Positions 9,204-29,379 of a stretch of DNA of 64,000 nucleotides are shown in pieces (within the stretch, counting starts at the first letter, position 1; each line of letters begins with the position of its first letter). The notes beneath the pieces were generated by a model. The model saw only the letters and a list, made by a program, of their open reading frames with translations, had not been told where the DNA came from and did not search any database. This DNA comes from Leptospirales bacterium (lineage in GTDB: Bacteria; Spirochaetota; Leptospiria; Turneriellales; JAOUFE01): the NCBI GenBank assembly GCA_040326155.1, contig JBEQLE010000016.1, forward strand, positions 1 through 64,000, given 5' to 3'. A program made the translations under genes and the position numbers.

Positions 9204-9263
9204 TTGGGGAGTGCGGACGGGGTTTATTTGTGGTTAGGGGGAATAGTTTAAATACTTATTAAA

Positions 9264-12200
9264 CTATTCCCATTTCAATTTCATATATATAGCACCAAGT
9301 GGATTGGCAACCAAGCCAGAACCGCCCAATACTGTATCCCCATATTCCCATCCTTCATTATTCAGTGAGAGCCTTATCTTTCTACATCGATATTCATGAG
9401 TATATTCCCAAACTTCCATACTGAGTGGTGCAACCAACTCAAATTCTTTTTCCACTATCTTACCCCCTTCTTTAATGTTTAGAGTATGTTTTGGAATTAA
9501 TATCTCAAAGTGTTGCACCTTTTCTTTTGTGTTGATATCAAATTGATGTTGAAGACGATCTGGAGTTAAAAAATTATAGAGACGAATATCATTTACAGTC
9601 TTTAAATTATTACTGCCTTCTTTTTTTAAACGTTCTACCTTTTCTCTAAGACCAGCATTTAATTTTTGATATAGATCCATCCAGCCCCACAAACCAGATT
9701 TAATTTCTAGCTTAAATTGTTTGATACCCTGTTGATCTTCTGGACATGCATAATAAAGTAAATACAGAATACCGTTGATAGTCTTAAAATCAATAGATAA
9801 ATACACATCCCACTCCCCAACTTCGTACCGGTATGGAAAACTAGTACTTTTAAAAAATTCTTCTGGTGTTGATGCATTTTTAACTAGTTCATATGCTCGT
9901 TTAAAATCACTTATATTGATTTTTTCCAATTTGTTATATTCTTCCCCGGGAGTAAGTTCAAGATTTGATCTTACTACATAGGACCACCAGAAATTGAGAT
10001 TACTATGGTTCATTTTTTTAACTTCTTTGGAATTCTCATCCATTAGTGTACTTATCTTGTAATTGTTAATAAATTGACCTATCTGCCCGGCAGCTTCACC
10101 AGCACCAACTAAACCACTAAAAATACGAAACAATCTACCAATTTTTAATGGATTATTATGTCTAGCACCAAATATATCACCAATTTGAACTGGTGTACCA
10201 ATTGGCTTGCGTGAGTCGTATGTTGGGAATATATCAAGTTTATTAAGACCGCCAGGTTTACGAATTAATTGACTACGACGTTCGAGACCAAGAAAATTTA
10301 CTTGGTCTCGAATTAAAAATATTGGATCAATATTATCATTTAAATAGTCGGCATAGCCCGGTCCATGATGCAAATTTACAAGGGCATAATTAAGTCGAAT
10401 ATTTCCTGAATTATTTGCCATTTTTCTTACAAGCTTTTTGGCACCAAGGACAATATCGTCAGGGTGATATGAGAGAGGCTTAGCTTTTAACATATTTAAA
10501 ACTTCATACTGACCAATTAGAGTATTTTGAAAGTGGAGAATCCAATTAACAATGCGATTATTCTTATGAAAAGACAAACCATGAGATCTATGGAACATTT
10601 TTTCAGCGTTTTCATTCCAGAATGCCCCATTCTTCTTAAATATGGGATTTCCTTGGTAATAATCATTAATATGTTCTTTTGCAATTGCTTGCTTCACAGA
10701 TGGAGGTAAATCCGCTCTGTACCCTGTTAGATCAAAAATTACTGGATTATTGTTAACAAATCCAGGCAATTTTTGATTTGGTTTTCTAACGAAAACTTTG
10801 TTGGGTTTTTTGGGCTTTATATTATTTCCCGGACCTGTCACTAATGTCGGACTTGCTATCACTCTAGCAGCTACCGAGTTATCTGTTTGATAACCCGAGT
10901 TAATTGCATCTGTCAGTTGGTGCGCTAGAACCATCATTTGGTCATTCGTTTGTGGATCAACTACATAGTGAATTTGGTGCAATTGTCCATCGCTTTTCTT
11001 ACTAACAAAACCTACTTGCCCACTGTAACATTTACCATCAAGATTATGTTGCTCTACACTTTTTTCCCCATAGTAATAATGCGTATTTACTTGTGGATTA
11101 TACCAGCCGAGCAAAGGTTCAGAATAAATGTCAAACATACTGGTAACTTCAAAAATTGCATCTTGGTATTGATAATTAATATCAAGTTCTTTTAGCATAG
11201 AATCGTCTAAGCTGCTATAAAGTGATGTTTTCGTAACCGGATTCCAAAATCTATGAATTTTTGTATAAATTTCCTCTGCCAAACTAATATCCAACCACGG
11301 GTTATTTAACAAAACCGGTCGCAGACTTACGCACCTAACCTCGTCTAATTCATCACTGAATTTAGTAACAATGCCAACCGGCCTTTTAGTATTGCCTTTT
11401 TGTCCAAAGATAATGGCACCAGTATCACCTTCGCAGGCAAATGGCTGTTCTGATTGGCTACCCACACGTATATCATAACCGCTAATTTGCGTAATAATAC
11501 CTTCTGTTACCCCGGTTCTCGCACCTGATTTCCAGACCTTCATGCCTAATCTAGGCTCTAAGAATATTCGTTCAAATTCAATTCCTTCGACATCAGGCGA
11601 GACCTCTCGACCGCCAGTGGGTGCCGCTACCAAAAAGTTCGATTTCAGGGTGAAGTCATCTTTGGTTTTGATAGTTTGAAAATCGGAACGAAATCTTTCG
11701 CCGACGGGCTCGCTTGCATCACCCTGAAACAATTTTTCCTCATGCTCTTCTTGCCCTGTTTGTTTCAACGATAAACCACCGAGAATATCACGACTGGTTA
11801 GAATAACCGGCTGACAACTTCTGCGATCATAAACGACCATACCCAGCGTTCCATACGGCTGTCTGACACCGTTTTGCTCGGTGTAGATAGGGATTCCACC
11901 TTTGAGTTCATCATACGTCCCTGTTCTGGCCTCCGATGTGGGCACATCGCAAACTCGCGTCTCGCCTGGACCGACTGTATCTTTGATTTCGATCACATCA
12001 ACCGGATATCCCGAAAGGCGTACCTCGCTTTTTATCTTCTGCAATGCCTGCTCTTTTTTCCTGGCTAGTATTTCGGCTCTATTGGTTTGACTAGCGCCAG
12101 ATGCTGTGCCGGGCGCATCATTGCTGGCTGCCCCGTCTGGCTGTTCAGTCTGATCATTTGCATTTTGAGCAGGCATTTCTTCCTTTACTATGATTTCTTT

Positions 12201-12356
12201 TATTGTCACCCGCACACAAAGCGTATTGGTCGGCAAGCCATCGCGCATTTTCAACGCTACGGAAACGTTCTTCACCCCCGGCAGCCGCAGCAACCTCGGC
12301 GTCTCACGCCTGACCACATCCTTAAGTTCTCTTATATTCTCTTCCGTATTTTGCAT
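9264..12356 (-). CDS. Nal1-like trypsin-fold protein with degenerate catalytic motifs and an unknown AT-rich C-terminal region
   Basis: LPGVKNVSVALK..G..T...GYPVDVIE prodomain-like segment; YGTLGMVV, LTSRDI (His position), KSGARTGVTEG, GDTGA (for GDSG); short RFWNP/GWYNP..THYY repeats. Confidence 0.7.
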   Translation of the reverse strand: MQNTEENIRELKDVVRRETPRLLRLPGVKNVSVALKMRDGLPTNTLCVRVTIKEIIVKEEMPAQNANDQTEQPDGAASNDAPGTASGASQTNRAEILARKKEQALQKIKSEVRLSGYPVDVIEIKDTVGPGETRVCDVPTSEARTGTYDELKGGIPIYTEQNGVRQPYGTLGMVVYDRRSCQPVILTSRDILGGLSLKQTGQEEHEEKLFQGDASEPVGERFRSDFQTIKTKDDFTLKSNFLVAAPTGGREVSPDVEGIEFERIFLEPRLGMKVWKSGARTGVTEGIITQISGYDIRVGSQSEQPFACEGDTGAIIFGQKGNTKRPVGIVTKFSDELDEVRCVSLRPVLLNNPWLDISLAEEIYTKIHRFWNPVTKTSLYSSLDDSMLKELDINYQYQDAIFEVTSMFDIYSEPLLGWYNPQVNTHYYYGEKSVEQHNLDGKCYSGQVGFVSKKSDGQLHQIHYVVDPQTNDQMMVLAHQLTDAINSGYQTDNSVAARVIASPTLVTGPGNNIKPKKPNKVFVRKPNQKLPGFVNNNPVIFDLTGYRADLPPSVKQAIAKEHINDYYQGNPIFKKNGAFWNENAEKMFHRSHGLSFHKNNRIVNWILHFQNTLIGQYEVLNMLKAKPLSYHPDDIVLGAKKLVRKMANNSGNIRLNYALVNLHHGPGYADYLNDNIDPIFLIRDQVNFLGLERRSQLIRKPGGLNKLDIFPTYDSRKPIGTPVQIGDIFGARHNNPLKIGRLFRIFSGLVGAGEAAGQIGQFINNYKISTLMDENSKEVKKMNHSNLNFWWSYVVRSNLELTPGEEYNKLEKINISDFKRAYELVKNASTPEEFFKSTSFPYRYEVGEWDVYLSIDFKTINGILYLLYYACPEDQQGIKQFKLEIKSGLWGWMDLYQKLNAGLREKVERLKKEGSNNLKTVNDIRLYNFLTPDRLQHQFDINTKEKVQHFEILIPKHTLNIKEGGKIVEKEFELVAPLSMEVWEYTHEYRCRKIRLSLNNEGWEYGDTVLGGSGLVANPLGAIYMKLKWE

Positions 12357-12365
12357 AATATTCTC

Positions 12366-15300
12366 CTAACCAGGAAACTCCGCTTCCAATCTCATAATCT
12401 TCAACAAGCGCGCATCGTCTCTCGCCCCTTGACCATCGGAATGTTTCTCGACCAACGCGGGGTTCAAGGTCTCGTCGGTGTAGACGTCTATGCCGATGAC
12501 AAAGCCAGCGTTTTCGCGGCGGGCTCCTGCGTTCTCGAGCCACTCTTGCATCTCTCTCCCGAGTCTGCTGACGGCGTCGTCGGCGTTGACATCAACTCCG
12601 TTGGGTACGTGGTCTAAAATAAACCGTGGTTCAAAAAAGAGCGGGGTTTCGCTGGCGAACGATGCCTCTTTCCCATTAACTTCGCTCCAGTCTCCGGCTA
12701 AAGAAAATCCGTAGCGCACGCTCAGGGCAAGGCGTCGTGTGATGCCTGCGTTTTCTTGGCCAAAGCCCAGCCCTAATAGATGATGTAAAATATCTGCTAG
12801 AAGTTCAGTCGGGTGATTGTATTTTTTGGTTGAGCCTGTTGGCGTTAAACTCGATACCGCCACTCGTTTTTCCATTTCGACCGAAGGAAAAAATCGGTCG
12901 GGCAGGGTTACGATTGGGGTGCGGTAGACAAACGCTTCGGCGGTTGTTTTGCCTTCGAGCAGTTTTGCGTTTCGCGTGGTTTTGATGCGAACTCGCACGT
13001 TTTGTTTTTCTAGAATATGCAGGTGTTGAAACCCGATTCGCCGTGGCATCTCTTCGAGTTCGTCGCTTGTTTTATCTCGAAACCAGTCTTTCATTGTGAC
13101 CGTGAACACGGCTTGTTGTTTGCTTATGCCTTCTGCATCCACCACGGTCTTGAATTTCGGTTTCGAGGTGACTCCGGTAACGCCGTTTACGCGCACCAGC
13201 GGAGCCGGGTCGTCGGGGGCGCATGTAAAGACATACCGCAGATCGTCTTTGATAATTTCATTAGCTGCGTTCGTCTCGGTGTAACGCTCTTCGGTAAATT
13301 CATAACGGTGCTTCGAAGTTTGCAGGGTCTCTCCATAAGTCGCAGGCGCGATCACACCGCCGCGCTCGTAGAGTTCTCGCCAATGATCGGCCAGTTCGTC
13401 GACCAGAACAATCATGTCGTCTAAAATCCAATGCAAGTCGGCATTGTTATTGCCACCGGCTTTCTCGTCCGTCGCAAATCTCGCCTCTACCCGGGCTTCT
13501 AACATGTCGGAATATTTTTCAAGCGTCTCGTTGCATTGAGCCAGCGCGTGAAAGAGGTCTTGAAAAAGACGTCCGTTGTAGCCACCGAGCATCGGGGGCA
13601 GCGGCACTAAGGCTTTCAGATTAAAAAAGATCTCCATCGTGTGGTTGTCTTGTTCGGCAAACTCGGCTAAAAAATCGACCTCGTATCGCCAGGCCAACAG
13701 ATCGTCGAATGAGTTAATTTCCGGGTAGCCCTTTTCGTTCATCTCAAAATCGGCCACACCCTGTTGTCGTGACAAACGCGGAGCCTCGGGCATGTCGCGA
13801 AGCGCCACCGGAATCTCCAGCTCGCCAAGTTCGTTCGGGCACGGGGGTATCACAAAAGAGAGAACGATTTCTTCGTGTTTGTTATCACCCGCTTTACGAA
13901 CAGGGTTTTCAAATTCCAGACCGTCGAGTTGAAACGCCACCTTGGTATCGACCGTACGGTGCTCTTCCGGTTTGAGAACATCGACCGCCATTGTCAGGTA
14001 GTCTTCGTTTCGACTAAAGTTCGACGATTGCAAGGTGTAACCCGTATCTGTGGCAACGCTTCGATCTTCGAGAAAACTTCCCTTCGCCTCAAACGGCTCG
14101 CCCGCGGCATTTGTAAACGTTAAAGGAAACATCACCGCCGTGTCGATATCGTAGGCCGAAGCCAGCCGGTTACCGATCCGCTCTTTCATGATGCGCCGCG
14201 TCACTTCGCTTTCGGCCGGTTCCTTTATACCGGCAGGTGGGGGATAATCGATGATCTCGGTCAAACCCGTAGTCAGAGCGCTCGCGAGTTTTGCCCGCGC
14301 CGCCAGCAGTTCGTCGTAGGTATGCCCGTTCTCCGTTACTTCGATTTCAGAAAACGCAAGGGCGCAAGCCGGGCGCAGCATCCGGTCGAAAAGTTCGAGC
14401 GAACGTTTGGCCCACTCGTCAAAATCGATATCAGAGTAATTCTTCAGTTCGTATGCCTCATTGGGGATGTCTGTACCAGGGTTGACCGGATCATCGAACC
14501 CTAAAGCCAGGTTTGCCTTATCTTCGATAAATTTAAAAATCGCGACATCCTTTCGGTTCATCGGCGTCGTTGCTAACGGCCGAAGCGACAAGAACGCCGG
14601 GTTTTTCGAATCTATTTGATAATGAAATCCGCCCTTTCCAAGACGCACGGCCCACAAAGAAGGTTTATCTCCGCCTCCACGCCGCTTCGCCCCCATCCCT
14701 AAATGCAGATTCTCTTTCGCCAGGGCATTTTGAAAAGCGAGGGCATATGGCCGCAGGGTGGCGGTTTTATTCTTCGTCTTGTTAGTTTTATTAGAATCAG
14801 TGCCGACAGACCCATGATCGCCAGAACCCGACGGGGCAATTTCAGAAGCCACATACCAGACCGATTTTTTATCGCGCATTTGCGGATGAATGAATTCTAT
14901 ATCTTCGGCTGCCGGCTGTTCTGAAAAACGTTGTAAAACCAGGCTGGCCTTGAGTTCATAAGCCGCAGGAGTTTTTCGCGCTTGCACGTTTCGTGAAAGA
15001 ATCACCGGCACAGGCGGGGCAAGATAAAAAGAACCGGGCTTGAGTATATTCGCTTCGGCTATTGCCGAGGCAAATTCCGCGCTTGAAATTGTTTTACCTG
15101 CCAGAGCCGAAAAAGCTTTTCGCAACGTATCAAAGCTATCGTCTACGATCGTTCTGATCGTAAACGTTGTATTTTCATTCGATGAATCCGCATTCGTATT
15201 CGTAGTATTACTAGCACTATTGATATTATTTATATTGGATGGAGAAGTTTTGGGAACAACTATTACAGAAAGTTCGATATTGGGTTGAAGAATGTCAGCC

Positions 15301-18300
15301 CTGCGGGCGTTGATCGCCACAAAGTCTTCGGGGCTCACGCTAAGCTCTTTGCCCACCGCGACAATACTTGTCGCTTGAGATGATTTCCAGGCTTCACCCG
15401 CTTCGCCGTTTTCTATGTTGACCAGGGTCGGAGCAACCAGGCGGTTCTCCAATAAAATGGCGCAGGTCTCGCTAAGGTTCACCAGGCGGTTGGCCGCGAT
15501 GATTTCTATTTGGTCGGGGGCAATGGCAAATCCGTTTGTAATCGACCCGCCTATAATTTCGACCTCGATGGTATACAGCATCCGTCGAGCGAGTTCACCC
15601 AGGGACTCGTCTGCCTGCATGGCCTCGTTTCGTTCGCTCGTGATGATGACTTTTTTCGGAGCAAGCAACCCTTCTCGGTCGGCAAATTCCAGCAATAACT
15701 CACCGGGGGTTGTGTTCAGCCCCGCGGCCGCCTCGGCTATCGTAAGACTCGGCGTGATGATCACCGATGGATTTTCTGCGAGTTCTGTAAAATCCGTGGT
15801 ATCCGTTGAACTCGTTACATTCGTCGGAGTAAGGGAACCAGGGGCAGCTAATGTAAGTCTTCCTATGATTGCAGATTTTGCTACCAATTCTGATGTAGAT
15901 TCCGTTGCAGGTTCTAACACAAAATCCAGGTTGAAAATTCCCGGCTCGTTTAGATACCGTTCCAAAAGCGATTCGATCAAAACATCGGTAGATGCCATTT
16001 TCAGAGCCAGCGCAATAGAGTTGAGCGAGTCGGTACCAATTTGCCACTTGATCGGAATTTTTAGAAGTGGTATACCATCCGATATATTCAGAAACTCACC
16101 GAGCGGCAGGGTTTGAATCGCCCGCGACAATTCCTCTTCTGTGATTCTATGGGCTATTAAAAAGGCCTCTATGTTTACAGTGTTTATACCATTTGCACTA
16201 TTTACACCGGAGGCAGGAGATATTTCGAGAGGCTCCAGCGTATCGGCACTGATCATCAAAGCATCTACCCCTCGTAGGAAATTTAACAAATCACTTTTCC
16301 ATTGTTGTTTAGTTGTTAATGAAGGTTCCGCTTCAAGGGAGGTTTGTATGAAAGTCTGCAAACGAGTATCTTGAAGTTGAGCAATCACTTTCGCTAACTC
16401 TTCTTTGGTACTCTCTGTACTATTTTGCGTAATGTTTTGTGTGCCCTTTTGTATATTATTTTGTCCAGCATTGACACTATCTTCTTTTTCACCCAGCATC
16501 GAAGGGTCAAACTTGATCTGCATCGAAAGTTGTGGTTTAGTTGCGCCACTTTGAAACACATGGGTCGCCTGAACTCCGGGCCATCGGTTGACCCCGATAA
16601 TATCATCGTAGTAATAACAGGTCAAAGGAAGCCGTTTGATCTTCTCTTCTTTAGGAGCAACCGGTGTGGCAAGGCCGGCAAAAGAAAAGTCTTGCGAAGA
16701 AGCTTCGTTTCCAAAAAGATCGCGCCACGAGATATTCAGCCAGCGGGTTTTGCCGACGGCGCTATAAGCGGCCAGTTCACTGCGATTCTTAAAAGCCGCT
16801 GCCACAGGAATCACCTGCTCATAAAGCCAGGTTCCTTCTTGCACTTCGCGCGGACCAATCGGCAAACTCGCCGGTGAGGGGTTATCCCCATTTTCATCGG
16901 AAAAATAAAAGGAGACGAGACTATACAGCGATTCCAGGGCGTCGGCGGTATTTTCTTCGGGTTCCGGTCGCTCCAGTCTAAAGTGCAACATGTCGCGTTC
17001 AAAGCGAGCCTTCTTTTGGGTGAGCCCATCAGCCGTCAGGCGAATCGGAGCCGATCCTTTATCTTGTGCTTCGTCTAAATAAATCGAGTCGGCATGCCTC
17101 AGTGGGTCAACCTGCCCCTCGGGAAAAATCATCAAGGTGACTTTGCCCTTTTTGCCCCCGGCAAAAATACGCTCTTCGACGTCATCTACACCTGGTAAAA
17201 CATCGGCAAAGAAAAAAGACCCCGCTTCTTCATCAAGCGATTCCGCTAAAAGCCGCAGAAAATCTATAGCCGAGCGGTTATCGGCTCCGGCAGGAGTATC
17301 GAGTCGATCGTCGGCATCGTTTCGAAAAAGTATAATCTCTTTGGCGTCGCGCTGCCCGACCAAAAGGCCACCCGAACTTGTTGCCGCTCCGGCAACTCCG
17401 GTTGAGGGGGCGAGGCTTACAGTAATGAGCCCTTGTTCGGCATCGGCAAGGGTACGCTCAAGTTGTAGTTGCGCATTGGGGGAGAGCCCGGCAATTCGGT
17501 AAATCGTACGGCCTTCGACAGCGGCCTCTTTGTCGAGTTTATAGACTTCGATATCAAGCCGCACCGCCCACTGAAAATTGAGTCTGGGTTCTTCGATGTT
17601 TTCCGCGGCAGAGGAACGCCGGGCGCGCAGGGCTACCCAGTCATAATCGACCTGACCCTCTTTTTGAGAGCTCTCGAGAAATTGAAAAAAGGACGGCGGT
17701 AAAACACGCAATCTGCCATACGTTTTTATGTCATCACTTTCGGAAAGCCTGCGAAGGGGAATCGCCCGAGCCAGACTAAAATCGAGTTGTTCTTCCCTGG
17801 TCATCTCCATAGCCGTGACCGTTGCTTCGGGAACAAACGAGGTATCATTGAGTATTTTGCCCAGAGCCGCGTCTTCGTTTTCGGTAAACTCCAAATCCAG
17901 TTGGGCAGCGGTTTGCATCTTCTTCAGCAAAGCTTTGTCTACCTCTGTTTTGGTAGTTTTAAATTCGACAAGGGCAGTTGTAATTTCAACGTTCTCGCTC
18001 ATAGATTGCGCAGCGAGTATCAAGGCTTCGGCACTTGTAAGCGTGGTATCATTATTGGCATCAATGGCAACTTGCAAGGCTGCTGCCGCTTTCACTATTT
18101 TATCAATGTTCTCAATTTGTAATTTCGTTTCTTCCGTTTGTTCTGCAGGTGGAATACTCTTCGCGATTTTATCGAGATCTTGGGCGATCTGAGTCATATT
18201 TTGTGCGGATTGCCCCATGTTTGAAAGGGCATCCGTAAGAGCTTGTGCCGCGAGAACTTCGTTTTCAAAAATCAACCACTCGGGTTTATGACCGTTTGCA

Positions 18301-21300: not shown

Positions 21301-23132
21301 TATTTCATTTCGCCGCCCGCTTCGCCAACCCAATCATCACCTGTGCTCTCCCGCGCAAGAGAGATGCTGCCCTTTAGTTCAAGGTCACCCCCGCCGAAAG
21401 GCAGAGCCAAAGAAAAACCGGAAGCGGCGTGAAAACTTGCCTTGCCGTTGCCTGTGTTAATACTGGCATTTAGCTCGTTAATCGTCAGCGTTTGTAAATC
21501 GCCTGGAATACTACCGGAATCAATACCTACAACCGAAACCAGTTGCGGCAAAGAAAGATCGGAACCAGGCGCAAGGCCACCTTCTAAAATCCAGTCGCCT
21601 GCGCTGGTTAATTCAGCGCTCAGTTGTAGCAAACCATTATCGTCGCTCTCGCCTTCGCCTGGCTTGCCTAGTTGGAGCATACCTCGTATAACCCCAAAAT
21701 ATTTTGTTGTTGCCCCGCTGGCATCTACATTGCCCGAAATGCTGATTGCCTTTAAACTTATTTCAAGTCCTATAATCTTATTAAAATCCCATATGCCAGA
21801 TAGGCCAAAATAAAATTGATATTGTTTTTCAGTGACATTGCCAGATATGCGTAAACCGTCAATCTGCATGTCCAGCAAGGAATCGGGTATCGTTACACCT
21901 GCAAGAAGACCCTCAATAATTTCTTGAATATCGGGCGCGGTTTCTGGAACCAGTTCAATGGAAAATTCTTGCTCCGGAACTTCCAGAGTAAGGTTAAGTT
22001 CAGTATTGCCTAACTTAATCTGCCCATATATTTCTGCGTGTCCCGAAACCGGGTCAGTCGTAGGCCAGATGGTGAAGGCTCCACCGAGTTTCGAAACGGT
22101 GAGTCCCGGCAGAAGTTCTAACTCGTCCTCTTCATCCATTACCGCAACAATAGTGATATCTTCTGGAATGCCCGACACGGCACCTAAAAGCACTCGGATA
22201 CTTTGTATCTGTATTTCTGGCATGTTTGCAGGCATGGGAATTCCAAGCCCGGTAGCGTCTGCCGTTTGGTTATCTGATTCACCAAGTTCTGCGTATAAGA
22301 CATGAAAAGGACGGTCGGGTGGCGCGGGTATCAATTGGAATTTAACGGTTATTGTGTTTACATTGTCAATATCACCAAGAGAAATCGCAATCTCGCCCTC
22401 CAATAAAAGCGCAGCCTGTAACAGACCTGTTTCGTTTTCTTCGGCGATGAGTGCAATTTTAATATCCGATAGCGTTACGGCACCAATGGTAATTGGCTTA
22501 AATGATGGCGTTTCAATCCGTAACTTTTGTACGGTTCCCGCTTCGCCAATTTCGGCAGTCCCTGTTACTCGAGGTAAATCTACAAATTCTCCAAGCAGGG
22601 GTAGCAAAGGCGCTAATAGATCATCCAGTCCCGGGTTAACAATGCCATCGGAAATTTCTATGACCCCCCTATTGTCAGCGTTGCTTTTTAGTTCAAGCTT
22701 AAGGTCGATCAGGGGAACCCAAAGTCCTGACCCGGTGAGTTCGGGAAACAGCCCTGCCGGGGTAACGCCCATCTCGGGGATGACCAGTATGGTAAGGGCA
22801 ACTTCTTCGCTTCCGATTTCACCTTCTGGTTCGCTGGTACTATCTGCTGCACCAGCTATAGCACTTTGAATAATAAATACGGCACTTATTTTAACGGGGG
22901 GTAGCCCAAACACAGAAGCGTAACCGGTGATCTCAACTTTGCCTGTGGCTGTCGTTTCGCTCACCTGAGCTTCCAGAATTTCAAACCCCATCGACTGATC
23001 AGGCAGGTAGGCTTCTAGTAGATCGTAGATACAGGGCAACTCTTCGAGAGGTTGTAACAATAAAGTACCCTCATCGGGGTCGATGACTTGTAGTTTGAGC
23101 AGCTTTTCTATTTCACCTGTTGTCATTGCCAA
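12366..23132 (-). CDS. Giant 3588-aa protein: beta-rich (DUF6603-like) N-terminal third and multiple degenerate LysM-like repeats
   Basis: Uninterrupted ORF. Alternating hydrophobic/Gly beta-strands through ~aa 1120. YNIEDGDSLETIADAHGITAIELATAN plus several weaker LysM-like units at about 15030-16060. The DUF6603 label is from recollection of similar proteins. Confidence 0.65.
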   Translation of the reverse strand: MAMTTGEIEKLLKLQVIDPDEGTLLLQPLEELPCIYDLLEAYLPDQSMGFEILEAQVSETTATGKVEITGYASVFGLPPVKISAVFIIQSAIAGAADSTSEPEGEIGSEEVALTILVIPEMGVTPAGLFPELTGSGLWVPLIDLKLELKSNADNRGVIEISDGIVNPGLDDLLAPLLPLLGEFVDLPRVTGTAEIGEAGTVQKLRIETPSFKPITIGAVTLSDIKIALIAEENETGLLQAALLLEGEIAISLGDIDNVNTITVKFQLIPAPPDRPFHVLYAELGESDNQTADATGLGIPMPANMPEIQIQSIRVLLGAVSGIPEDITIVAVMDEEDELELLPGLTVSKLGGAFTIWPTTDPVSGHAEIYGQIKLGNTELNLTLEVPEQEFSIELVPETAPDIQEIIEGLLAGVTIPDSLLDMQIDGLRISGNVTEKQYQFYFGLSGIWDFNKIIGLEISLKAISISGNVDASGATTKYFGVIRGMLQLGKPGEGESDDNGLLQLSAELTSAGDWILEGGLAPGSDLSLPQLVSVVGIDSGSIPGDLQTLTINELNASINTGNGKASFHAASGFSLALPFGGGDLELKGSISLARESTGDDWVGEAGGEMKYKTIRLKAAFPINNADIDLTIGLWLPQAGDPDAGAWLECTVDKDASGSIEKLTISLSNELNIFAAIEGFINLMIPGFAMKFPPPWDQLKDLTLPPTTIEINPKKNTVSLSITGGFDDINQVPGIDIQSVGLLYDTKKSKIEFQLVGGLFGTAYTKDDPLSFDPVTEDLPTPKVPDVGFELRYLGVGRHVSLRNAAGYDHVADAIDDLRHAFDIDPREGAAALGPLTYNSGSEWLIGFDFSAAGFLSIGAIFNDPVFYGLVIRLDGPGAKSMSGFELEIMYKRIAPGLGVYSIELELPSAIRTLELGAITLRLPVVGIDIFTNGNFKLDMGFPYGANFERSFYISVLPFTGAGGFYFASLNGATSTVVPRIVNGEFDPVIEFGIGLQVGIGKSFGSGCFYAEINVSVLAILEGCFATFLPYDKNAGEALFYRISGTFGIYAILTGRVDFGVLCVNFTAELYLIAQVVVESYAPFFINARAGVRVSARVKIGWFTITLRFSQEVSVSYTFGSRKATPWIVGTRAVAAGMGRGHGLQNHSQNRQMRMTMSPDGTTSVLENNTFDWARVPAVNAKIPITWYSWFGVSIDLETKNADGQNKLSHIPVATPLIGFAEMLDEPDTEKNNKPPEDFALWIERVFHWLLTAWPSNTAGQISFSSASKMDRALQEDRAAASIGWSELNDFIFENFSVTLRSQPLAQEGGEYKMALVPLPPALFIQFDIDGTLRELDLSVEPLVDQSSLSNIKERSSRYTPGTISTPSGAATSNGSEAGIDAPMSEWLWKDAISLQIKELASRLLSLMEACPIQITGEHAYTSMGDIYEPLVYDPDPNDADREPYFEDFVEANMAKIDILKIDFEIIIPQESGDLSYNIEDGDSLETIADAHGITAIELATANLDVDLVRLESTWTVPYIKELSPEEAWQQLIDANALSDIAAMTSRFLLHGVRIPVKDETSIPVKLDWKNLYEAAALQFELPITEKTTDGKGTSITEKLNRGSVKLTLTPSANGHKPEWLIFENEVLAAQALTDALSNMGQSAQNMTQIAQDLDKIAKSIPPAEQTEETKLQIENIDKIVKAAAALQVAIDANNDTTLTSAEALILAAQSMSENVEITTALVEFKTTKTEVDKALLKKMQTAAQLDLEFTENEDAALGKILNDTSFVPEATVTAMEMTREEQLDFSLARAIPLRRLSESDDIKTYGRLRVLPPSFFQFLESSQKEGQVDYDWVALRARRSSAAENIEEPRLNFQWAVRLDIEVYKLDKEAAVEGRTIYRIAGLSPNAQLQLERTLADAEQGLITVSLAPSTGVAGAATSSGGLLVGQRDAKEIILFRNDADDRLDTPAGADNRSAIDFLRLLAESLDEEAGSFFFADVLPGVDDVEERIFAGGKKGKVTLMIFPEGQVDPLRHADSIYLDEAQDKGSAPIRLTADGLTQKKARFERDMLHFRLERPEPEENTADALESLYSLVSFYFSDENGDNPSPASLPIGPREVQEGTWLYEQVIPVAAAFKNRSELAAYSAVGKTRWLNISWRDLFGNEASSQDFSFAGLATPVAPKEEKIKRLPLTCYYYDDIIGVNRWPGVQATHVFQSGATKPQLSMQIKFDPSMLGEKEDSVNAGQNNIQKGTQNITQNSTESTKEELAKVIAQLQDTRLQTFIQTSLEAEPSLTTKQQWKSDLLNFLRGVDALMISADTLEPLEISPASGVNSANGINTVNIEAFLIAHRITEEELSRAIQTLPLGEFLNISDGIPLLKIPIKWQIGTDSLNSIALALKMASTDVLIESLLERYLNEPGIFNLDFVLEPATESTSELVAKSAIIGRLTLAAPGSLTPTNVTSSTDTTDFTELAENPSVIITPSLTIAEAAAGLNTTPGELLLEFADREGLLAPKKVIITSERNEAMQADESLGELARRMLYTIEVEIIGGSITNGFAIAPDQIEIIAANRLVNLSETCAILLENRLVAPTLVNIENGEAGEAWKSSQATSIVAVGKELSVSPEDFVAINARRADILQPNIELSVIVVPKTSPSNINNINSASNTTNTNADSSNENTTFTIRTIVDDSFDTLRKAFSALAGKTISSAEFASAIAEANILKPGSFYLAPPVPVILSRNVQARKTPAAYELKASLVLQRFSEQPAAEDIEFIHPQMRDKKSVWYVASEIAPSGSGDHGSVGTDSNKTNKTKNKTATLRPYALAFQNALAKENLHLGMGAKRRGGGDKPSLWAVRLGKGGFHYQIDSKNPAFLSLRPLATTPMNRKDVAIFKFIEDKANLALGFDDPVNPGTDIPNEAYELKNYSDIDFDEWAKRSLELFDRMLRPACALAFSEIEVTENGHTYDELLAARAKLASALTTGLTEIIDYPPPAGIKEPAESEVTRRIMKERIGNRLASAYDIDTAVMFPLTFTNAAGEPFEAKGSFLEDRSVATDTGYTLQSSNFSRNEDYLTMAVDVLKPEEHRTVDTKVAFQLDGLEFENPVRKAGDNKHEEIVLSFVIPPCPNELGELEIPVALRDMPEAPRLSRQQGVADFEMNEKGYPEINSFDDLLAWRYEVDFLAEFAEQDNHTMEIFFNLKALVPLPPMLGGYNGRLFQDLFHALAQCNETLEKYSDMLEARVEARFATDEKAGGNNNADLHWILDDMIVLVDELADHWRELYERGGVIAPATYGETLQTSKHRYEFTEERYTETNAANEIIKDDLRYVFTCAPDDPAPLVRVNGVTGVTSKPKFKTVVDAEGISKQQAVFTVTMKDWFRDKTSDELEEMPRRIGFQHLHILEKQNVRVRIKTTRNAKLLEGKTTAEAFVYRTPIVTLPDRFFPSVEMEKRVAVSSLTPTGSTKKYNHPTELLADILHHLLGLGFGQENAGITRRLALSVRYGFSLAGDWSEVNGKEASFASETPLFFEPRFILDHVPNGVDVNADDAVSRLGREMQEWLENAGARRENAGFVIGIDVYTDETLNPALVEKHSDGQGARDDARLLKIMRLEAEFPG

Positions 23133-23188
23133 AATATTTTCCTTCTTTAATATTCCCTTTATATCTACGTTATCATATCATTATCAAA

Positions 23189-26100
23189 TTATTCGGGTTT
23201 ATTCCAGGCAGCGTACCATGCGACTTTTCCGGAGCCTCCGGCATTGGGGTCGCCAAAAAGTGCCGCATCTATGTTTCCATCCATCGGGAGCGTAAGGCCG
23301 AGAGGCATATGTATACCCAGCCTGCGAAAAAGCAAAATCGTTTCGCCGGTTTCAGGGTTTGTCATAAACTGAATCTGCTCGGGGCCAATTTTTATGAGAT
23401 CATCAACGATACTAAAAGAGCCGTCAAACCCTGGAATTCGCAGCCCCATATTAACGGCTGAGTTTTTTCCATTTGGCCACCAGGCAATGGTTAAATATAC
23501 TTTTATCGAGCCAAGACCAAGATCCAGACGATATTCCAACTGGTAACCCGCCTCGGGGCGCGTTGTCTGGGGTATCGGAGAAACAACGGGGGCTAATTTT
23601 AAAGCGGAGATACCGTTCTCGGGTAACAAACGAAGGGAGTCCAATGCCAGTGGAAAACGATTTGCCAGTGCATTCGTGCGAGCCTCGGCCGTTGCCGCTT
23701 GTATACGCATGGGTTCTATAGAAAAAGTAATCTCAGAAACCGGAGTCTCTTTTGCTTTTGCGGGCACACTGAAAGAGAGATTCAGAGCCATATTATTCAT
23801 CGGAATTTTATCGTAGGAGAAAATATCAAACCCTTCCTGGGCGCGAAACTTCAGATGCCCTGCAAGTAAAAATCGACCTTTTACATCCAGGCCTGTGCCA
23901 TCTTCACCCGGCCCCACAGAGGTTGTTTCAAAACCGGCGCGATGGAGCATGACCTCTTCCAAAACTCCGCTGGTCGTATAAAAAGGTAATTTTTCTTTGC
24001 TGCGAAACGTGTAACGGCCTTTACCGTCGTGCTCTTCGTAATGTCCGTTTAAGATGATTGTATCGGTTGGGCGTCCTTCCGGGTCTTCTACAGCTGACGG
24101 CGTGATTTCGGCCGATCCTTTTTTCCCTTCTACCTTAAGTATGGTAGTTGCTTTATCGCCAAAAAGTTCGCGAATGGATACATCGATGCGAGCCTGAAAA
24201 GTTTGCAACCGGGAATTTCGAAAACGCGCGCGCAATTTGCGAACTGTCCAATCCCACGAGGCCTCTACACTTAAAGCTGAGTCGTCGTTGTAGTCGACCA
24301 GACCAAACAAAGCGCCGCGGCCTCCGGTAATTGAACCCGATTCTTGACGTTCTAAAGCCGAGCTGCTCACCCCCACATGATGTGCCTTTAATTTCGTAGG
24401 GTCGACTCCTCCTGCAATGATCGCTAGATCATCCGGAAATCCAACCGGCGAAACCGATACATTAAAAGCTATAAAACCATTCCAGTTTGGGTTTTGCCAG
24501 ATTTGATAAAGAAACGGAGCAAAATCAAGATCGCCGCCATCTACTGCTTTTCGAGCCACTTCTGCTGATTCTTGCAGGCGGTCAGAAATATCCCAGGGGT
24601 CGAGATTTAGAAATTGACCTTCCGTCCATTCGTCCGGCCTTTTGACCAACTCTTCCATCGACTCGGGATGATCTTTAAATACTAAAATTGTATTAAAATT
24701 AAACCATAACGCAGGGTCGATGTCAAACCCCCAACCGGCAATGCTGAGCAGTGGGTTTTCAAGCGACGCGTCGTTTTCGAGAAAGAGTATCGGGTCGCTC
24801 ATTACAGAGATCCGCCGACTAGACAAAAGCGCATTCTTTAAAGGACCTTTGATATTGTTGATGGCAAATGGCTGATCGTCGCTTCCGGTGGTAATTAACA
24901 TCCGCCTCCACTGCGATAGGTCGTGGGAAAAATTTCCGATGTATCCGCCGGGGGTTACGCTGGTAATTCCGTCCATCGCCGGAGCGCCGTAATTTACACC
25001 GGTGCCACTTCGAGATGGCACGCCGCCGGCAGTATTGACTGGAATAGGCGAATAAGCATCCAAAACCGAACCGTCATCTGCGCGTTGAAAATATTTCATT
25101 TTTTGACTACGCACAGGAGCCGCCATGCACAGTTCAAGCCGCAAAGCCGCTTCGCTACAATTCGCATCGATTCCGCCAAAAGGCAGAACTGGCACACACT
25201 CTTTTCGATGGGCAATGGTTCCCACAGAGCGATCAGCAAGGTTGGCAATCGGTGTCGCTAAAAAAGAGGCGGAGTCATCGGGGCCGCCAGGCACATAAAA
25301 AGGTTGCTCCGAGGGTTGGGCAAAATAAGTGGCGAGCCCGCCGTGAAAGCGAACATAAGAGGTGCAAGCCCGGTCTTCTAATACGAGAGAATCTTCCTGT
25401 GCATTTGTCGTTTGTTGTGTGTCATTTGGCTTTCTATTTTTTTTAAAATTAGGTAAATATGCGTTACACCCGTTTCGAAATGTCATATAAAAAGGGTGGC
25501 TATCAAACCCTCCCTGGTAAAATTCCGTTCCCGAAGTTCCCGGCATAAGTGAGGGGAACTGCTCCGTTTGAATTTCTGGCGATTCGTGTGTGCTCAGGGA
25601 AAACGAACCCCAGGGTGTTAAATACCAAGCGTCGGAATTTCGTCCTCCCATTGTCTCCATTTTTCGTTCGTAGATTAAACCTGCACCTTCTGTGGGAGTA
25701 ACCCAAATCGTTTGTCCGAGAGGAGTTCTAAAATAGGATGGTATCGTTGCTGATGATGAAAATTTAAATATAGTTTCTGGCTGTTCGTTATCGCGCCTCA
25801 ATGAATGAAGCGGGTGCAAAAATGCCGTGCATTTCAGAGATTGCTCTCCGGGCGAAAAAACCGGAAAACGAAGCGAGTCAATATAGTCAGACCCATTTTC
25901 TTGACCCTCTTCTTGATCAGGAAAAAAGTATCTGATTCCGGCATCGAGAAGATTCAGATCGGCTTCATGAATATCGATGTTGAATTTTAAACGACCGGGA
26001 CGAGATCGGGCAACTTCAATGTCTACCTCGCCTTGAATAGCCCCCGTACTTTTTACCCCAAAACCTGTCATGAAATAGCCAGCCGATGTTTTTCCATTTG

Positions 26101-26491
26101 GCGCTTGAAAAGTTAAGAGGTCGCCGTTTGTTTCTAAAGTCGAGCCGGGGTATAGATATAATATATGATTGCGAAATCGAAACAAGCCTCGATCGATCAA
26201 TTTTCCATTTTGAATTTTTAAGCCGCGTAGCTTGCCAGGGTCATCGAGCAAATCAGGGTATTGCACCCAGACCATTTTAAGAGCCGGATCTCTGCGAAGA
26301 ACTTTTACTCGCAATGTAAAATCATCTAAATCGGCGGGCGGAGTATCGCAAAAAATAAGGCAGCTATCGTCGTGTATAAAATCTGTTAGCGTTTTTTCAA
26401 TGCTTTCTGTACCCGAATTATAAAGAAATAACGCAGGGTACGGCTCGCATGAATAGAGCCCTTCAGAAAGATGCGAAAAAACAATCGGCAT
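23189..26491 (-). CDS. Large hypothetical protein (1100 aa), beta-rich, no signal peptide
   Basis: Long ORF 2 bp downstream of the Ig-repeat gene; no catalytic motif recognised. Confidence 0.8.
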   Translation of the reverse strand: MPIVFSHLSEGLYSCEPYPALFLYNSGTESIEKTLTDFIHDDSCLIFCDTPPADLDDFTLRVKVLRRDPALKMVWVQYPDLLDDPGKLRGLKIQNGKLIDRGLFRFRNHILYLYPGSTLETNGDLLTFQAPNGKTSAGYFMTGFGVKSTGAIQGEVDIEVARSRPGRLKFNIDIHEADLNLLDAGIRYFFPDQEEGQENGSDYIDSLRFPVFSPGEQSLKCTAFLHPLHSLRRDNEQPETIFKFSSSATIPSYFRTPLGQTIWVTPTEGAGLIYERKMETMGGRNSDAWYLTPWGSFSLSTHESPEIQTEQFPSLMPGTSGTEFYQGGFDSHPFYMTFRNGCNAYLPNFKKNRKPNDTQQTTNAQEDSLVLEDRACTSYVRFHGGLATYFAQPSEQPFYVPGGPDDSASFLATPIANLADRSVGTIAHRKECVPVLPFGGIDANCSEAALRLELCMAAPVRSQKMKYFQRADDGSVLDAYSPIPVNTAGGVPSRSGTGVNYGAPAMDGITSVTPGGYIGNFSHDLSQWRRMLITTGSDDQPFAINNIKGPLKNALLSSRRISVMSDPILFLENDASLENPLLSIAGWGFDIDPALWFNFNTILVFKDHPESMEELVKRPDEWTEGQFLNLDPWDISDRLQESAEVARKAVDGGDLDFAPFLYQIWQNPNWNGFIAFNVSVSPVGFPDDLAIIAGGVDPTKLKAHHVGVSSSALERQESGSITGGRGALFGLVDYNDDSALSVEASWDWTVRKLRARFRNSRLQTFQARIDVSIRELFGDKATTILKVEGKKGSAEITPSAVEDPEGRPTDTIILNGHYEEHDGKGRYTFRSKEKLPFYTTSGVLEEVMLHRAGFETTSVGPGEDGTGLDVKGRFLLAGHLKFRAQEGFDIFSYDKIPMNNMALNLSFSVPAKAKETPVSEITFSIEPMRIQAATAEARTNALANRFPLALDSLRLLPENGISALKLAPVVSPIPQTTRPEAGYQLEYRLDLGLGSIKVYLTIAWWPNGKNSAVNMGLRIPGFDGSFSIVDDLIKIGPEQIQFMTNPETGETILLFRRLGIHMPLGLTLPMDGNIDAALFGDPNAGGSGKVAWYAAWNKPE

Positions 26492-26493
26492 GA

Positions 26494-29307
26494 TTAGTCC
26501 AACCTGAATTCTATGTGATCTCCTGCCAATAGCGGAGCATCTGCAAAATCAATGGTTGAGTTTTGAGGTTGTAAACCTATGTCAGACCACTGTTTTTTTC
26601 GTAATTTGATAGAACTTTTTTCTGCGTTTGTATCTACGCTTACATCGGACCATTGACGTTGCCAGGTTACCTGCCCGCTGTGAACCAAATCCGGAGTAAA
26701 CCAATGAAGGTGTTGTTCGCAAATTTGCCTGAGGGTAGCACCGACGGGAACATAGCTTTTTTTGCCATTGAGAACCAAAGGTAATTCAACCACGACCCCC
26801 GTTCTTCCTCGAAATCTTCGCAGAATAAAATCGGCACTGGCTTCGCCGAAATCTCCGGCTGCCGCTTGAATGCCCTGGCTAAGCGCAGAATAGGTATCTG
26901 CCGCAACAAGAGTTACGTGTTCTTCCTTTACAGATGACGCCGTTGCTGATGAGGGCAGGCTGGCCGGTAGTACGATCGCCAGGTACTTTCGCCTGAGATC
27001 CCCGGCATGAAGATCAGTCAGTCCGCCGATCATTCCGTCAGTGGATTCATCTGCCGTTGTGTATCCGAATTCTGAGAGCCCGGTAGCCATCGGATTTAAC
27101 GTCGTGATAAAAGAGCCATCATGAATTCGTTGGCGACTTACCGGAAGAAGCATCTCTCCGGAAGGAACCATTCCATTTGTCTGATCGCGACCTGGGCCGC
27201 AAAATTGAAATGAGGCTGCACTAACACGTACACGAAAACCCGGCATAAGAGGAATGGCTCTTAAAGAGCGATCGAGCCCACAACTCCAGGGCAGAATTTC
27301 AGAAACAGCCAGGGGAATAGACCGAACCACTCGATTGCGCACGAGATCGCCAGAACCCGATTGTAACAATGTACTTTCTTTTAATTCAATACCTGTGAGC
27401 AGTTTTTCAAAGGCACTTTTTAACAAAGCACGGTTGTCTGAATCGGTAGACCAGATCAACTCTCCCGGAATACTTATTCTGAGTTTGTTGACTCCCTTTT
27501 TTACGGAAGCGACCATGTTCTCCGCTTCACTTTTCCAGGTGGCATCACCGGCTACAATGTCAGGAATCTCCAGTAGAAAATCTTCTCCATAAGTAAAATC
27601 CGGTGGCAGCAAATAAGGCTCTTCGGTCGTTTCATTTTTAAAATCGGTAAAGCTACGAAAAACCTGAAAGCTGTCGTTTTCAAAGGGAATAGCGTGTTTT
27701 ATTTCAAAATCGTAAATATTTTCAACATGGTTACCTGCGATATCTTCCAACTTTAAACTCAACTTATGGTTTCCAATTCCAAGCAAACCAATATGAGGCA
27801 ATGGGCCGAATTGCAATTTAACCTTACCGCCCGGTGCGATAGATTCATTTTCTTGTACGACTAAATTGTAAGTACTTTTGTTTGCGGCTATAAGCGTCGC
27901 TGAACAAGAAGACGTATCTATCCCTGAATGCAGATCGCTCACTTCGACCGTCACTGGTTCTGCCAGTCTTTGCTTATCTAAAACACCCTTAGGAAAAACG
28001 GATGAGATTACCGGTGGGGTTGTATCTACTAGAAATTCGGTTTTTTCAGTTGCGGTTTCATTCCCTGCAAGGTCGCGCGCTGTAACGGATAAAGTATGCA
28101 GACCATCTGGTAAATTAGCAGTTTGCAGCTCAACGTTAAAAACATCAGAGACTTCTCCTGCCTGGTTCACTTGCTTCAAAGTGGGATCCATAGGCTTACC
28201 ATCTAAAAGTACTTTTACAGAACTTTGTTCTAAATGCGATCCACCCCCATCTGTAATAACTGCCGATATTTTAGGTGATGCAATATTATGAATAGAGTCC
28301 ATTCCCGGAAAAATCGAATGAATTTGCGGCGGTGATACATCTACAGTAAATAGAACTTCGGTACTTTTTGCTACATTGCCAGCTTTGTCTTTTAATTTGA
28401 AGATTATGGAATGCGAACCTTCGGGCAGCTTAACCGGCTGAAACGTAATTGTTAAAACCCCTGCCGAAGGGGAGGGCGTTTTTATCAATGATGGGTTATT
28501 TTCTTTGCTAAATGATTTCCCATCTTGTATAATACGAATAGATTCCAAATCAAGAGGAGACCCGCCGTTTTTTAAAACCGTGGCTGTAAATAACGGACTT
28601 TGTGTATTTAATTGCGCACCGTTAGGCGGTTCTACCGACTGAAACTCGGGAGGTGTTGCATCGACTAAGAATTTAGTTTTGGGAGAATTGACGAGATTCC
28701 CAGCCATGTCTTTTGCCTGGATTTTATAAGAATGTTCCGCTTCTGTCAGATTAACTTCCGGTTCAAATAAAATTTTAATGCTGTCGTTCGATAAAATCGT
28801 TTTTTTTATTTTAGTGGCATCGATGGGTAGGTCGTCTACAACCAACTGAATGGAATTTCGATCTATGTGAGATCCTCCATCGTCTGCAACCAATGCGGAA
28901 ATTGGTTCTTTAAGATTGTTTATGTACGATCCTTCAGAAGGTTTCAGGTCAGTTATTCTGGGTGAGATTGTGTCAATAATTATATTTGAGGGATTTGAAA
29001 CAATATTATTACTACTAAGTGAGTTCCCGGTATATGCCTTTGCTTCAATTTTAACGGGAAATCCGCTATTCGCAAAAGTAGATAAATCTATTTGGGAAAA
29101 TTTATGGGTTTTAAAGGGAGTTTTTGCTTCATGCAAATATTCAGAAACGATTTTGTTATCAAGAAAAAGTTTTATGTATTTGAAACCATCCGTTTTACCG
29201 CCACCGACAGTGGTGTCGACTAGAGAAACAGTTACATCGACAACGATTTTATTTATTTTTTCCAGATCTACCGGAGAAGTTATTAGTAATTCAGGACCGT
29301 TATTCAT
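26494..29307 (-). CDS. Bacterial Ig-like repeat protein with an unknown C-terminal domain
   Basis: Four ~107-aa repeats D.TPP...D.GGS.LD..S...L.EG.H.....D.AGN...F.VD plus a degenerate N-terminal copy. ATG 29307 is preceded by AGGTGG; the ORF track starts at GTG 29316. Confidence 0.8.
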   Translation of the reverse strand: MNNGPELLITSPVDLEKINKIVVDVTVSLVDTTVGGGKTDGFKYIKLFLDNKIVSEYLHEAKTPFKTHKFSQIDLSTFANSGFPVKIEAKAYTGNSLSSNNIVSNPSNIIIDTISPRITDLKPSEGSYINNLKEPISALVADDGGSHIDRNSIQLVVDDLPIDATKIKKTILSNDSIKILFEPEVNLTEAEHSYKIQAKDMAGNLVNSPKTKFLVDATPPEFQSVEPPNGAQLNTQSPLFTATVLKNGGSPLDLESIRIIQDGKSFSKENNPSLIKTPSPSAGVLTITFQPVKLPEGSHSIIFKLKDKAGNVAKSTEVLFTVDVSPPQIHSIFPGMDSIHNIASPKISAVITDGGGSHLEQSSVKVLLDGKPMDPTLKQVNQAGEVSDVFNVELQTANLPDGLHTLSVTARDLAGNETATEKTEFLVDTTPPVISSVFPKGVLDKQRLAEPVTVEVSDLHSGIDTSSCSATLIAANKSTYNLVVQENESIAPGGKVKLQFGPLPHIGLLGIGNHKLSLKLEDIAGNHVENIYDFEIKHAIPFENDSFQVFRSFTDFKNETTEEPYLLPPDFTYGEDFLLEIPDIVAGDATWKSEAENMVASVKKGVNKLRISIPGELIWSTDSDNRALLKSAFEKLLTGIELKESTLLQSGSGDLVRNRVVRSIPLAVSEILPWSCGLDRSLRAIPLMPGFRVRVSAASFQFCGPGRDQTNGMVPSGEMLLPVSRQRIHDGSFITTLNPMATGLSEFGYTTADESTDGMIGGLTDLHAGDLRRKYLAIVLPASLPSSATASSVKEEHVTLVAADTYSALSQGIQAAAGDFGEASADFILRRFRGRTGVVVELPLVLNGKKSYVPVGATLRQICEQHLHWFTPDLVHSGQVTWQRQWSDVSVDTNAEKSSIKLRKKQWSDIGLQPQNSTIDFADAPLLAGDHIEFRLD

Positions 29308-29379
29308 TATACCCACCTACCAGGAAAACAAAATTAATGCGCACGAGAAGGTGGGTATACAAGTGGTACGCTGTTGACT

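Follow-up and report, generated by a model that had tools for sequence, protein, structure and literature searches.

In this study, we analysed a window of 64,000 nucleotides (nt) from a Leptospirales bacterium (contig JBEQLE010000016.1, positions 1 to 64,000), and focused on four consecutive minus-strand open reading frames (ORFs), g1 to g4, which encode very large proteins. The locus belongs to an uncharacterised gene cassette that is widespread and moves horizontally; this copy comes from a rare, divergent clade, and the constant parts of the cassette are g2 and the giant protein encoded by g3. The four genes and the signals at the ends of the block are as follows.

29380-29407, minus strand: promoter-like site TTGACA-16-TAAAAT, 11 of 12 consensus positions, a consensus match only
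26494-29316, minus strand: g1, 940 amino acids (aa), GTG start
23189-26491, minus strand: g2, 1100 aa, ATG start
12366-23132, minus strand: g3, 3588 aa, TTG start, with an ATG two codons further in
9264-12356, minus strand: g4, 1030 aa, ATG start
9239-9271, no strand assigned: 13-bp perfect inverted repeat (hairpin) overlapping the g4 stop, a possible terminator

An earlier note, made from the DNA letters, had described four intact giant frames with gaps of 2, 56 and 9 nt, and both the coordinates and the stop-free translations of all four genes agree with it. Each of them has homologues elsewhere, and they are therefore not chance ORFs. The note had also named one promoter-like site. The TTGACA-16-TAAAAT match is indeed present about 64 nt upstream of g1, but it is not the only one, as the stretch upstream of g1 contains eight promoter-like sites against 4.4 ± 2.6 in shuffled sequences; only the position and quality of this match are therefore notable. 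In a crude hydropathy scan, neither a signal-like N-terminus nor a transmembrane-like segment was seen in g1, g2 and g4, and g3 showed only weak hydrophobic stretches of beta type, in line with the claim that the four proteins have no Sec-like N-terminus. Across the two families, a strongly hydrophobic N-terminus was found in one of 151 g2-family proteins and in none of 20 giants; all these export-signal calls come from the crude hydropathy scan. Searches of Pfam, NCBIfam, PADLOC and PHROGs returned for g1 to g4 only Ig-like domains, a weak LysM match, weak DUF5648 and Nal1_C matches and a PHROG protease. The same libraries detected no transporter or phage-tail family in the block, as had been stated before, and no sheath, tube or baseplate gene was found in the block or its flanks.

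Distribution and architecture of the cassette

The relatives of g2 define the extent of the family. A word-indexed search recovered seven relatives, 44-65% identical except one at 25%, including proteins from a Deltaproteobacteria metagenome-assembled genome (MAG) and a Kofleriaceae MAG. A profile built from 14 sequences was then searched against 1.84 billion representatives. It gave 1,792 matching clusters at E<=1e-3, and at the stricter E<=1e-30 there were 1,259, indicating that g2 marks a large family without a Pfam model. Using hidden Markov models (HMMs) of both families, we found a g2-family gene adjacent to a giant-family gene in all nine plasmid records with a g2 match. Five of the 12 metagenome loci end too early to judge adjacency, and the seven that reach at least 3 kb beyond g2 (L003-L007, L009 and L010) all show it. 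The window keeps the family order, with g2 at 23189-26491 followed by g3 at 12366-23132. In five cases the two proteins are fused into one (L010, P0033, P0034, P0153 and P0166), the giant occurs as two separate pieces in Paenibacillus and Tistrella, and the Lysinibacillus giant has no counterpart of the N-terminal ~780 residues; the giant family ranges from 2,100 to 4,350 aa. The locus is thus very likely a member of a conserved g2-giant cassette.

The cassette occurs in Cyanobacteriota, Bacillota, Actinomycetota, Pseudomonadota, Acidobacteriota, Myxococcota-type MAGs and the phylum of the window. The earlier proposal of a self-contained unit is supported, and this unit is conserved. The plasmid hosts are Nostoc, two Azospirillum, Mycetohabitans, Tistrella, Paenibacillus, Embleya, Lysinibacillus and Burkholderia; cultured carriers include Lysinibacillus fusiformis, Azospirillum lipoferum 4B, Nostoc carneum NIES-2107 and Paenibacillus sp. 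37. Carriers include plasmids and copies flanked by insertion sequences (IS). In the window's own phylum, the family was found in none of 400 other sampled genomes. Pattern scans of genome contigs also recovered no relative, although these used short exact patterns and are weak evidence of absence. Neither a tblastn search with g2 in 50,697 phage records nor a pattern scan of IMG/VR detected any relative.

The core of the cassette consists of g2, the giant and, optionally, the C-terminal domain of g1 (g1C), and the accessory parts vary. In L006, L007, L011 and Azospirillum lipoferum, and weakly in Nostoc, an EEP-family gene separates g2 from the giant; it is absent from the window's clade. Big_13 domains are an add-on of the window and L003. 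A ConA-like lectin (Laminin_G_3) was found in the Nostoc g1-like protein and in the gene downstream of the Nostoc giant, weak fn3 was found in Tistrella, and the giant of Azospirillum B510 is annotated as 'Ig-like domain-containing'. The fused proteins P0153 and P0166 have no LysM match and carry 3-7 Phage_BR0599 repeats (E 4.5e-16 and 1.4e-34), which suggests that one kind of small binding module can stand in for another in the giant. In Tistrella mobilis pTM1, a gene annotated with a Hint domain lies directly upstream of the cassette (L021, 9014-10759; weak in Pfam, E 0.004-0.005).

The neighbourhood comparison therefore bears out the expectation of a core of genes 1 to 3 with a variable gene 4, except that the core is strictly g1C, g2 and g3. 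The earlier note knew of no characterised function for this architecture, and our searches agree: no match in Pfam, NCBIfam, PADLOC, PHROGs or the PDB, by sequence or by fold, explains the system, and no description of the cassette was found in the literature searched, supplementary tables not being covered.

Domains and predicted structures of the cassette proteins

The modules identified within g1, g3 and g4 are listed below.

27907-29019, minus strand: g1 Ig-like repeats (Big_13 / Big_3_3), about aa 100-470, a clade-specific add-on
26500-27687, minus strand: g1C domain, aa 544-939, with homologues detected by blastp and HMM
19770-20774, minus strand: most conserved core of g3, aa 787-1121, predicted porin-like sheet or barrel with long antiparallel strands
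18618-18707, minus strand: single significant LysM module of g3, aa 1476-1505
12462-15392, minus strand: conserved C-terminal module of g3, aa 2581-3557 (~900 aa), present in all full-length relatives
11286-12356, minus strand: g4 N-terminal module, aa 1-357, Nal1-like trypsin-fold domain
10881-11258, minus strand: g4 DUF5648-like domain, aa 367-492
9264-10859, minus strand: g4 variable C-terminal region, aa ~500-1030, GC 0.34

The Ig-like repeats reported previously were confirmed in g1, where Pfam detected Big_13 in three stretches (E 3.1e-23). The C-terminal part of the same protein has a wider distribution. Homologues of g1C are proteins of ~400 aa, or C-terminal domains, encoded just upstream of the g2 homologue in distant loci; they were detected by blastp in L003, L007 (two copies), L009, L011 and L015, and by HMM also in L021 and L026, with Nostoc, Tistrella and Embleya among the hosts. 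These results identify g1C as a recurrent adaptor. A protein of L006 (8339-9517) also entered the alignment, fitted poorly and was excluded from the count. The g1C profile had no match among PDB sequences, and g1 itself gave chance-level matches only.

None of the four domain libraries matched g2. Its AlphaFold2 model, built from 68 of 157 aligned sequences, is confident (predicted local distance difference test, pLDDT, 88.8; predicted template modelling score, pTM, 0.79), and shows an all-beta or mixed protein whose C-terminal third consists almost entirely of long strands. No structure in the PDB matches this model: Foldseek gave template modelling (TM) scores of at most 0.09, and VIA-align against 48,161 chains gave a best Z of 6.0 (OpcA, 156 residues, 5.0 Å) and no chain at Z >= 8. 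A fold search of BFVD yielded nothing useful (best TM 0.05-0.11), and the g2 profile matched no PDB sequence. The nearest ESM Atlas clusters carry no Pfam family; the nearest one that does carries DUF6603, at a score of 0.77, which is chance level.

Twenty giants of 1,973-4,349 aa, named only as LysM proteins, are related to g3, and their sources include Streptomyces, Aestuariivita and Pyrinomonadaceae. The blastp segments showed g3 to be collinear with them in the core, in the LysM stretch and in the C-terminal module, and an HMM of the full-length giant covers aa 108-3557 of g3 in three collinear stretches. We modelled g3 aa 331-1330 from 24 sequences and obtained moderate confidence (pLDDT 71.9, pTM 0.40). 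In this model, aa 331-1121 consist almost wholly of long beta-hairpins and strands. Together with the C-terminal strands of g2, this substantiates the long beta-strand regions that had been read from the sequence. The best match of the core (model residues 457-796, aa 787-1126) was maltoporin 1mpr_A (Z 12.4, root-mean-square deviation 6.7 Å, 247 residues). In the same search, 69 chains reached Z >= 8, the top rows were nearly all beta-barrels, and the core resembled porins of 16-18 strands. On this model, the core would be a porin-like sheet, either closed as a barrel or open. The cassette also occurs in monoderm bacteria, and the core is therefore unlikely to be a resident outer-membrane barrel. 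Foldseek of the same fragment against the PDB gave TM scores of at most 0.12, g3 matched no PDB sequence, and its C-terminal part had no usable match in the ESM Atlas.

A weak signal of DUF6603 (PF20248) was seen at about aa 1054-1115 of g3 in the genome search (E 0.0175). Among seven core fragments, two gave the same family at E 0.019-0.04 with consistent profile positions (347-407/408), and all these matches on the g3 core lie far below the 27-bit cut-off. DUF6603 was not mentioned in the literature searched, and as a family of unknown function, its likeness would not explain the function of the cassette.

The LysM-like repeats had been claimed as such, and one of them stands. The segment at aa 1476-1505 scored E 0.015 and 15.6 bits with Pfam PF01476, under the 20.9 cut-off, and E 3.4e-9 with an HMM built on LysM modules from the relatives, which themselves clearly pass Pfam. 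The four other LysM-looking segments (aa 2367-2703, E 0.9-4.9) were not significant. LysM is the small glycan-binding module of most relatives as well; distant giants carry 5-18 copies, and in some relatives LysM also has a weak Phage_tail_X match. The repeats of the giant family match LysM wall-binding proteins (PF01476; LytE, Ecp6 and endopeptidase 4uz2; E 7.6e-11 to 2.6e-8), and the whole-giant profile matched only LysM entries in the PDB. LysM accounts for less than 2% of the length of g3, however, and the remaining ~3,500 residues match nothing. Further along g3, aa ~1625-1745 (~17898-18260) form a low-complexity insertion, helical-looking by eye, which cannot be aligned even with the closest giants and at which the blastp alignments break.

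We then predicted the complex of g2 aa 668-1100 with g3 aa 780-1140. The median score of three runs was 0.59, and the best of three controls scored 0.00; the runs shared at least 77% of contacts, and the pLDDT of the partners was at least 71. In calibration, 116 of 157 solved complexes and 2 of 215 mismatches attained the score mark, and scores of 0.60 or under comprised 18 of the 157 solved complexes and both of the passing mismatches. Natural fusions of g2 with the giant make binding likely beforehand, and we therefore read the prediction as mildly supporting the suggestion that the C-terminal region of g2 may bind the g3 core.

The last gene proved as variable as had been supposed. Only two homologues of g4 were found, both beside the giant of the nearest relative, on a 67,950-nt contig that also carries the closest homologues of g2 and g3; this linkage was read from the shared 67,950 nt and from consecutive locus tags. 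Only the N-terminal half of g4 is conserved, and the residual ~530 residues are poorly conserved and very low in GC. The protein matched the PHROG protease at E 3.5e-11, and aa 1-357 are homologous to a 326-aa Paenibacillus protein (HMM E 1.8e-10), which matches NAL1_N and Nal1_C and whose gene lies directly upstream of g2 in Paenibacillus. In the alignment, the His, Asp and Ser motifs are kept in this protein and the paralogue P0013, whereas g4 and P0012 have R-D where A-H is expected and GDTG where GDSG is expected. With the His and Ser positions replaced, the N-terminal domain of g4 is probably inactive as a protease; judged from its sequence, it is a member of the Nal1-like fold (PF25608 + PF25819). 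The HMM of this module detected nothing among the small upstream proteins of L004, L012, L013, L016, L017, L022 and L023, nor in L026 and L027. The following domain matches DUF5648 at E 6.3e-5 and 23.7 bits, under the 25-bit cut-off, which the homologue P0012 passes with 27.2 bits. A preprint describes DUF5648 as a three-bladed glycan-binding propeller and the receptor-binding domain of the pore-forming BSAP toxins of Bacteroidales (10.1101/2025.01.06.631476). Against PDB sequences, g4 gave chance-level matches only.

Possible function and its alternatives

We tentatively favour, at somewhat less than an even chance, the reading that the cassette encodes a signal-less, lectin-studded particle used against other microbes. 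In this reading, the proteins of g1 to g4 would form a complex in which the beta region at the C-terminus of g2 docks on the g3 core, and the resulting large particle would exit the cell independently of a Sec signal, through lysis or by another route. Its LysM, Ig-like, DUF5648 and lectin modules could then bind glycans in the cell wall of another microbe, where the particle would position an enzymatic or toxic subunit, leading to inter-microbial antagonism. We prefer this reading because it covers most of five traits of the cassette, namely the absence of export signals, the many modules of kinds that usually bind extracellular glycans or surfaces, the large all-beta scaffolds, the interchangeable enzyme-like or variable subunits, and the patchy plasmid- and island-borne distribution. 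The toxin or secretion role and the release by lysis, both suggested in the earlier note, are what we infer from glycan- and surface-binding modules on proteins without export signals. A more specific version, a new self-contained machine of tens of nm in which a particle with a porin-like core and a multivalent LysM and lectin array attaches to the walls of competitors and inserts or delivers interchangeable enzyme subunits, is rather doubtful. Its targets would be bacteria or fungi, its cargo the EEP enzyme, a protease or the g4 C-terminus, and it would be a class of weapon unrelated to Tc toxins, extracellular contractile injection systems (eCIS), type VI secretion systems or umbrella (Umb) toxin particles, spread through plasmids and islands over at least seven phyla.

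Several observations weigh against an antagonistic particle. Its export, assembly and toxicity are themselves inferred, the g2-g3 complex prediction lends assembly weak support only, and g3 was modelled over 1,000 of its 3,588 residues at the moderate confidence given above. No lysis, immunity or secretion gene is consistently adjacent to the cassette. Phage structural proteins, and proteins that act on the producer's own wall, contain LysM and Ig-like modules as well, and some copies of the cassette lie beside defence genes, such as the SIR2 gene and type III-B CRISPR of Azospirillum and the E2/UBC-MPN and DUF2075 genes of Lysinibacillus.

These neighbours point to an intracellular anti-phage or anti-plasmid defence system, in which the giant and g2 would act as sensor or scaffold and the EEP nuclease or g4 as effector, possibly through abortive infection. 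Such a system would fit proteins without export signals, a patchy and transfer-like distribution (none of 400 genomes in the window's phylum, plasmids, IS-flanked copies) and an EEP-family enzyme that is common in the cassette. It would also fit the SIR2 protein and type III-B CRISPR next to the Azospirillum copy, the nucleotidyltransferase-E2/UBC-MPN, DUF2075, HNH and integrase genes next to the Lysinibacillus copy, and the PIN, ParE, HNH, DUF5131 and Uma2 genes near the window copy. However, none of the four proteins matches PADLOC-DB 2.0.0 (2023) at E<=0.1, Pfam and NCBIfam detected no NTPase, helicase or nucleic-acid-sensing domain, and the 5-18 LysM copies, Ig-like domains, ConA-like lectin and DUF5648 have no obvious cytoplasmic ligand. 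The copies of L003, Tistrella and Burkholderia, moreover, sit among housekeeping or metabolic genes, and on balance we regard defence as unlikely. The binding modules could instead serve the producer's own envelope, with the giant anchored by LysM to its own peptidoglycan and displaying Ig-like or lectin modules as an adhesin of the inverse-autotransporter or S-layer type. Inverse autotransporter adhesins (intimin/invasin, type Ve) combine LysM, a beta-barrel, Ig-like domains and a lectin-type tip. The barrel-like core of the cassette and its LysM, Ig-like and lectin modules recall this set, the porin-like match reaches Z 12.4, and the LysM modules match wall-binding PDB proteins. But those adhesins are single polypeptides with an N-terminal Sec signal, whereas the modules of the cassette are split over g1 and g3 in another order, and its barrel-like core is larger, resembling porins of 16-18 strands. 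No signal peptide or membrane anchor was found in the hydropathy scan, and the monoderm carriers Lysinibacillus, Paenibacillus, Embleya and Streptomyces have no outer membrane. A core envelope structure would not be expected to be accessory, plasmid-borne and patchily distributed, as the cassette is, and an enzyme and variable subunits would be unexpected in a plain adhesin, which makes an envelope role decidedly unlikely.

It is very improbable that the cassette is a piece of phage structure that has degenerated or been domesticated, for example a tail, a baseplate or a part resembling a gene transfer agent. Relatives with weak Phage_tail_X matches on LysM or with Phage_BR0599 repeats, and the DUF5131 and HNH genes in the left flank, speak for it, and Ig-like decorations without signals are common on virions. 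Yet g2 has no relative in the phage records or IMG/VR, its model found nothing above TM 0.05-0.11 in BFVD, and no capsid, portal, terminase, sheath, tube or baseplate family occurs in or near the block or in 16 informative related loci. An eCIS or phage tail-like particle differs in the same respect: its sheath, tube and baseplate genes are not at the cassette locus, and sheath-family genes lie on other contigs of this genome (C48:3030-3413 and C83:95014-95478), which therefore has a contractile injection system or prophage elsewhere. A divergent Tc (ABC) toxin complex is the most improbable alternative. The comparison with Tc toxins had been drawn in the earlier note, and it holds as an analogy only. 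What is common, and is the only support for this alternative, is a set of several very large proteins without classical signals in one operon, and lysis release with delivery of a variable toxic part is conceivable for both. In contrast, no VRP1/TcA, SpvB, RHS or other Tc family was found in g1 to g4 (Pfam, E<=0.1), and the HMMs of g2 and the giant miss the Tc-like genes of the window. Fold searches with g2 and with g3 aa 331-1330 list Tc or Rhs chains only at TM 0.05-0.10, the beta core is porin-like rather than an RHS cocoon, and LysM arrays are no Tc feature. Tc homology is thus refuted as far as the sequences and the modelled parts go.

The antagonistic particle that we favour has a parallel in design. 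The Umb particles of Streptomyces (UmbA, UmbB and UmbC) are described as antibacterial, multi-protein and targeted by diversified lectin domains, and UmbA joins a trypsin-like domain without a complete catalytic triad to a lectin (PMC11062931). The layout of g4, a degenerate Nal1-like trypsin fold followed by a DUF5648-like domain, is of like design, a resemblance of design only, and variable, polymorphic parts occur in both systems. No counterpart of ALF-repeat UmbC or of UmbB was annotated in g1 to g4 by Pfam and NCBIfam, libraries that include no models of these, and g2 and the giant have no counterpart among the Umb proteins. Furthermore, the cassette extends beyond Actinomycetota, and no export signal was detected in its proteins. 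The logic of the cassette may be analogous to that of lectin-tipped Umb particles or Tc toxins, with unrelated parts.

The novelty belongs to the family and not to the window alone, with ~1,800 clusters of the marker protein across phyla and no Pfam family for the main proteins. Cells keep 15-20 kb of intact coding sequence and must therefore gain something substantial from it. A lectin-guided antagonistic particle would represent a new delivery principle in bacterial warfare and a source of glycan-targeting modules; a defence system would be among the largest known.

Composition and genomic setting

The conserved modules have similar GC contents (g1C 0.459, g2 0.472, g3 0.484, g4 N-terminal module 0.473), and these values of 0.46-0.49 against 0.38-0.40 in the flanks (0.377 and 0.396) make the modules look imported. 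The Ig region of g1 (0.395) and the C-terminal region of g4 (0.340) look like later replacements at the variable ends; GC at third codon positions (GC3) is 0.244 in the latter against 0.40-0.50 in the conserved modules.

The left flank resembles a mobile or defence island at 3139-8836. The genes of this flank and the other features around the block are as follows.

1884-2783, plus strand: papain-family (Peptidase_C1) protein, 299 aa, E 2.9e-9
3139-3516, left flank: PIN
3838-4191, left flank: ParE toxin
6332-7102, left flank: DUF5131
7230-8081, left flank: HNH endonuclease
8468-8836, left flank: XRE-type helix-turn-helix
8870-9106, minus strand: 78-aa ORF, TTG start, 158 nt downstream of g4
33430-35961, plus strand: eCIS_core-domain (PF13699) protein of 450 aa, then leucine-rich repeat (LRR) protein of 360 aa
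41679-58452, minus strand, and 58911-59486, plus strand: second giant locus

The 78-aa ORF, a mechanical ORF only, has two moderately hydrophobic stretches and a basic C-terminus, and could encode a small membrane protein of holin or immunity type. The right flank contains fliG, Uma2 and hydrolase genes in addition to the eCIS_core-domain and LRR genes. The HMMs of g2 and the giant and blastp found no relation between the second giant locus and g1 to g4. This locus includes a fused TcB/TcC-like protein of 2,559 aa with SpvB, FG-GAP and RHS repeats (41679-49358), whose gene sits 12 kb from the g1-g4 block. Upstream of it lie two paralogues of 1,496 and 1,501 aa, which are 45% identical and have no Pfam match, and a SUKH-4 immunity-type gene stands beside the locus.

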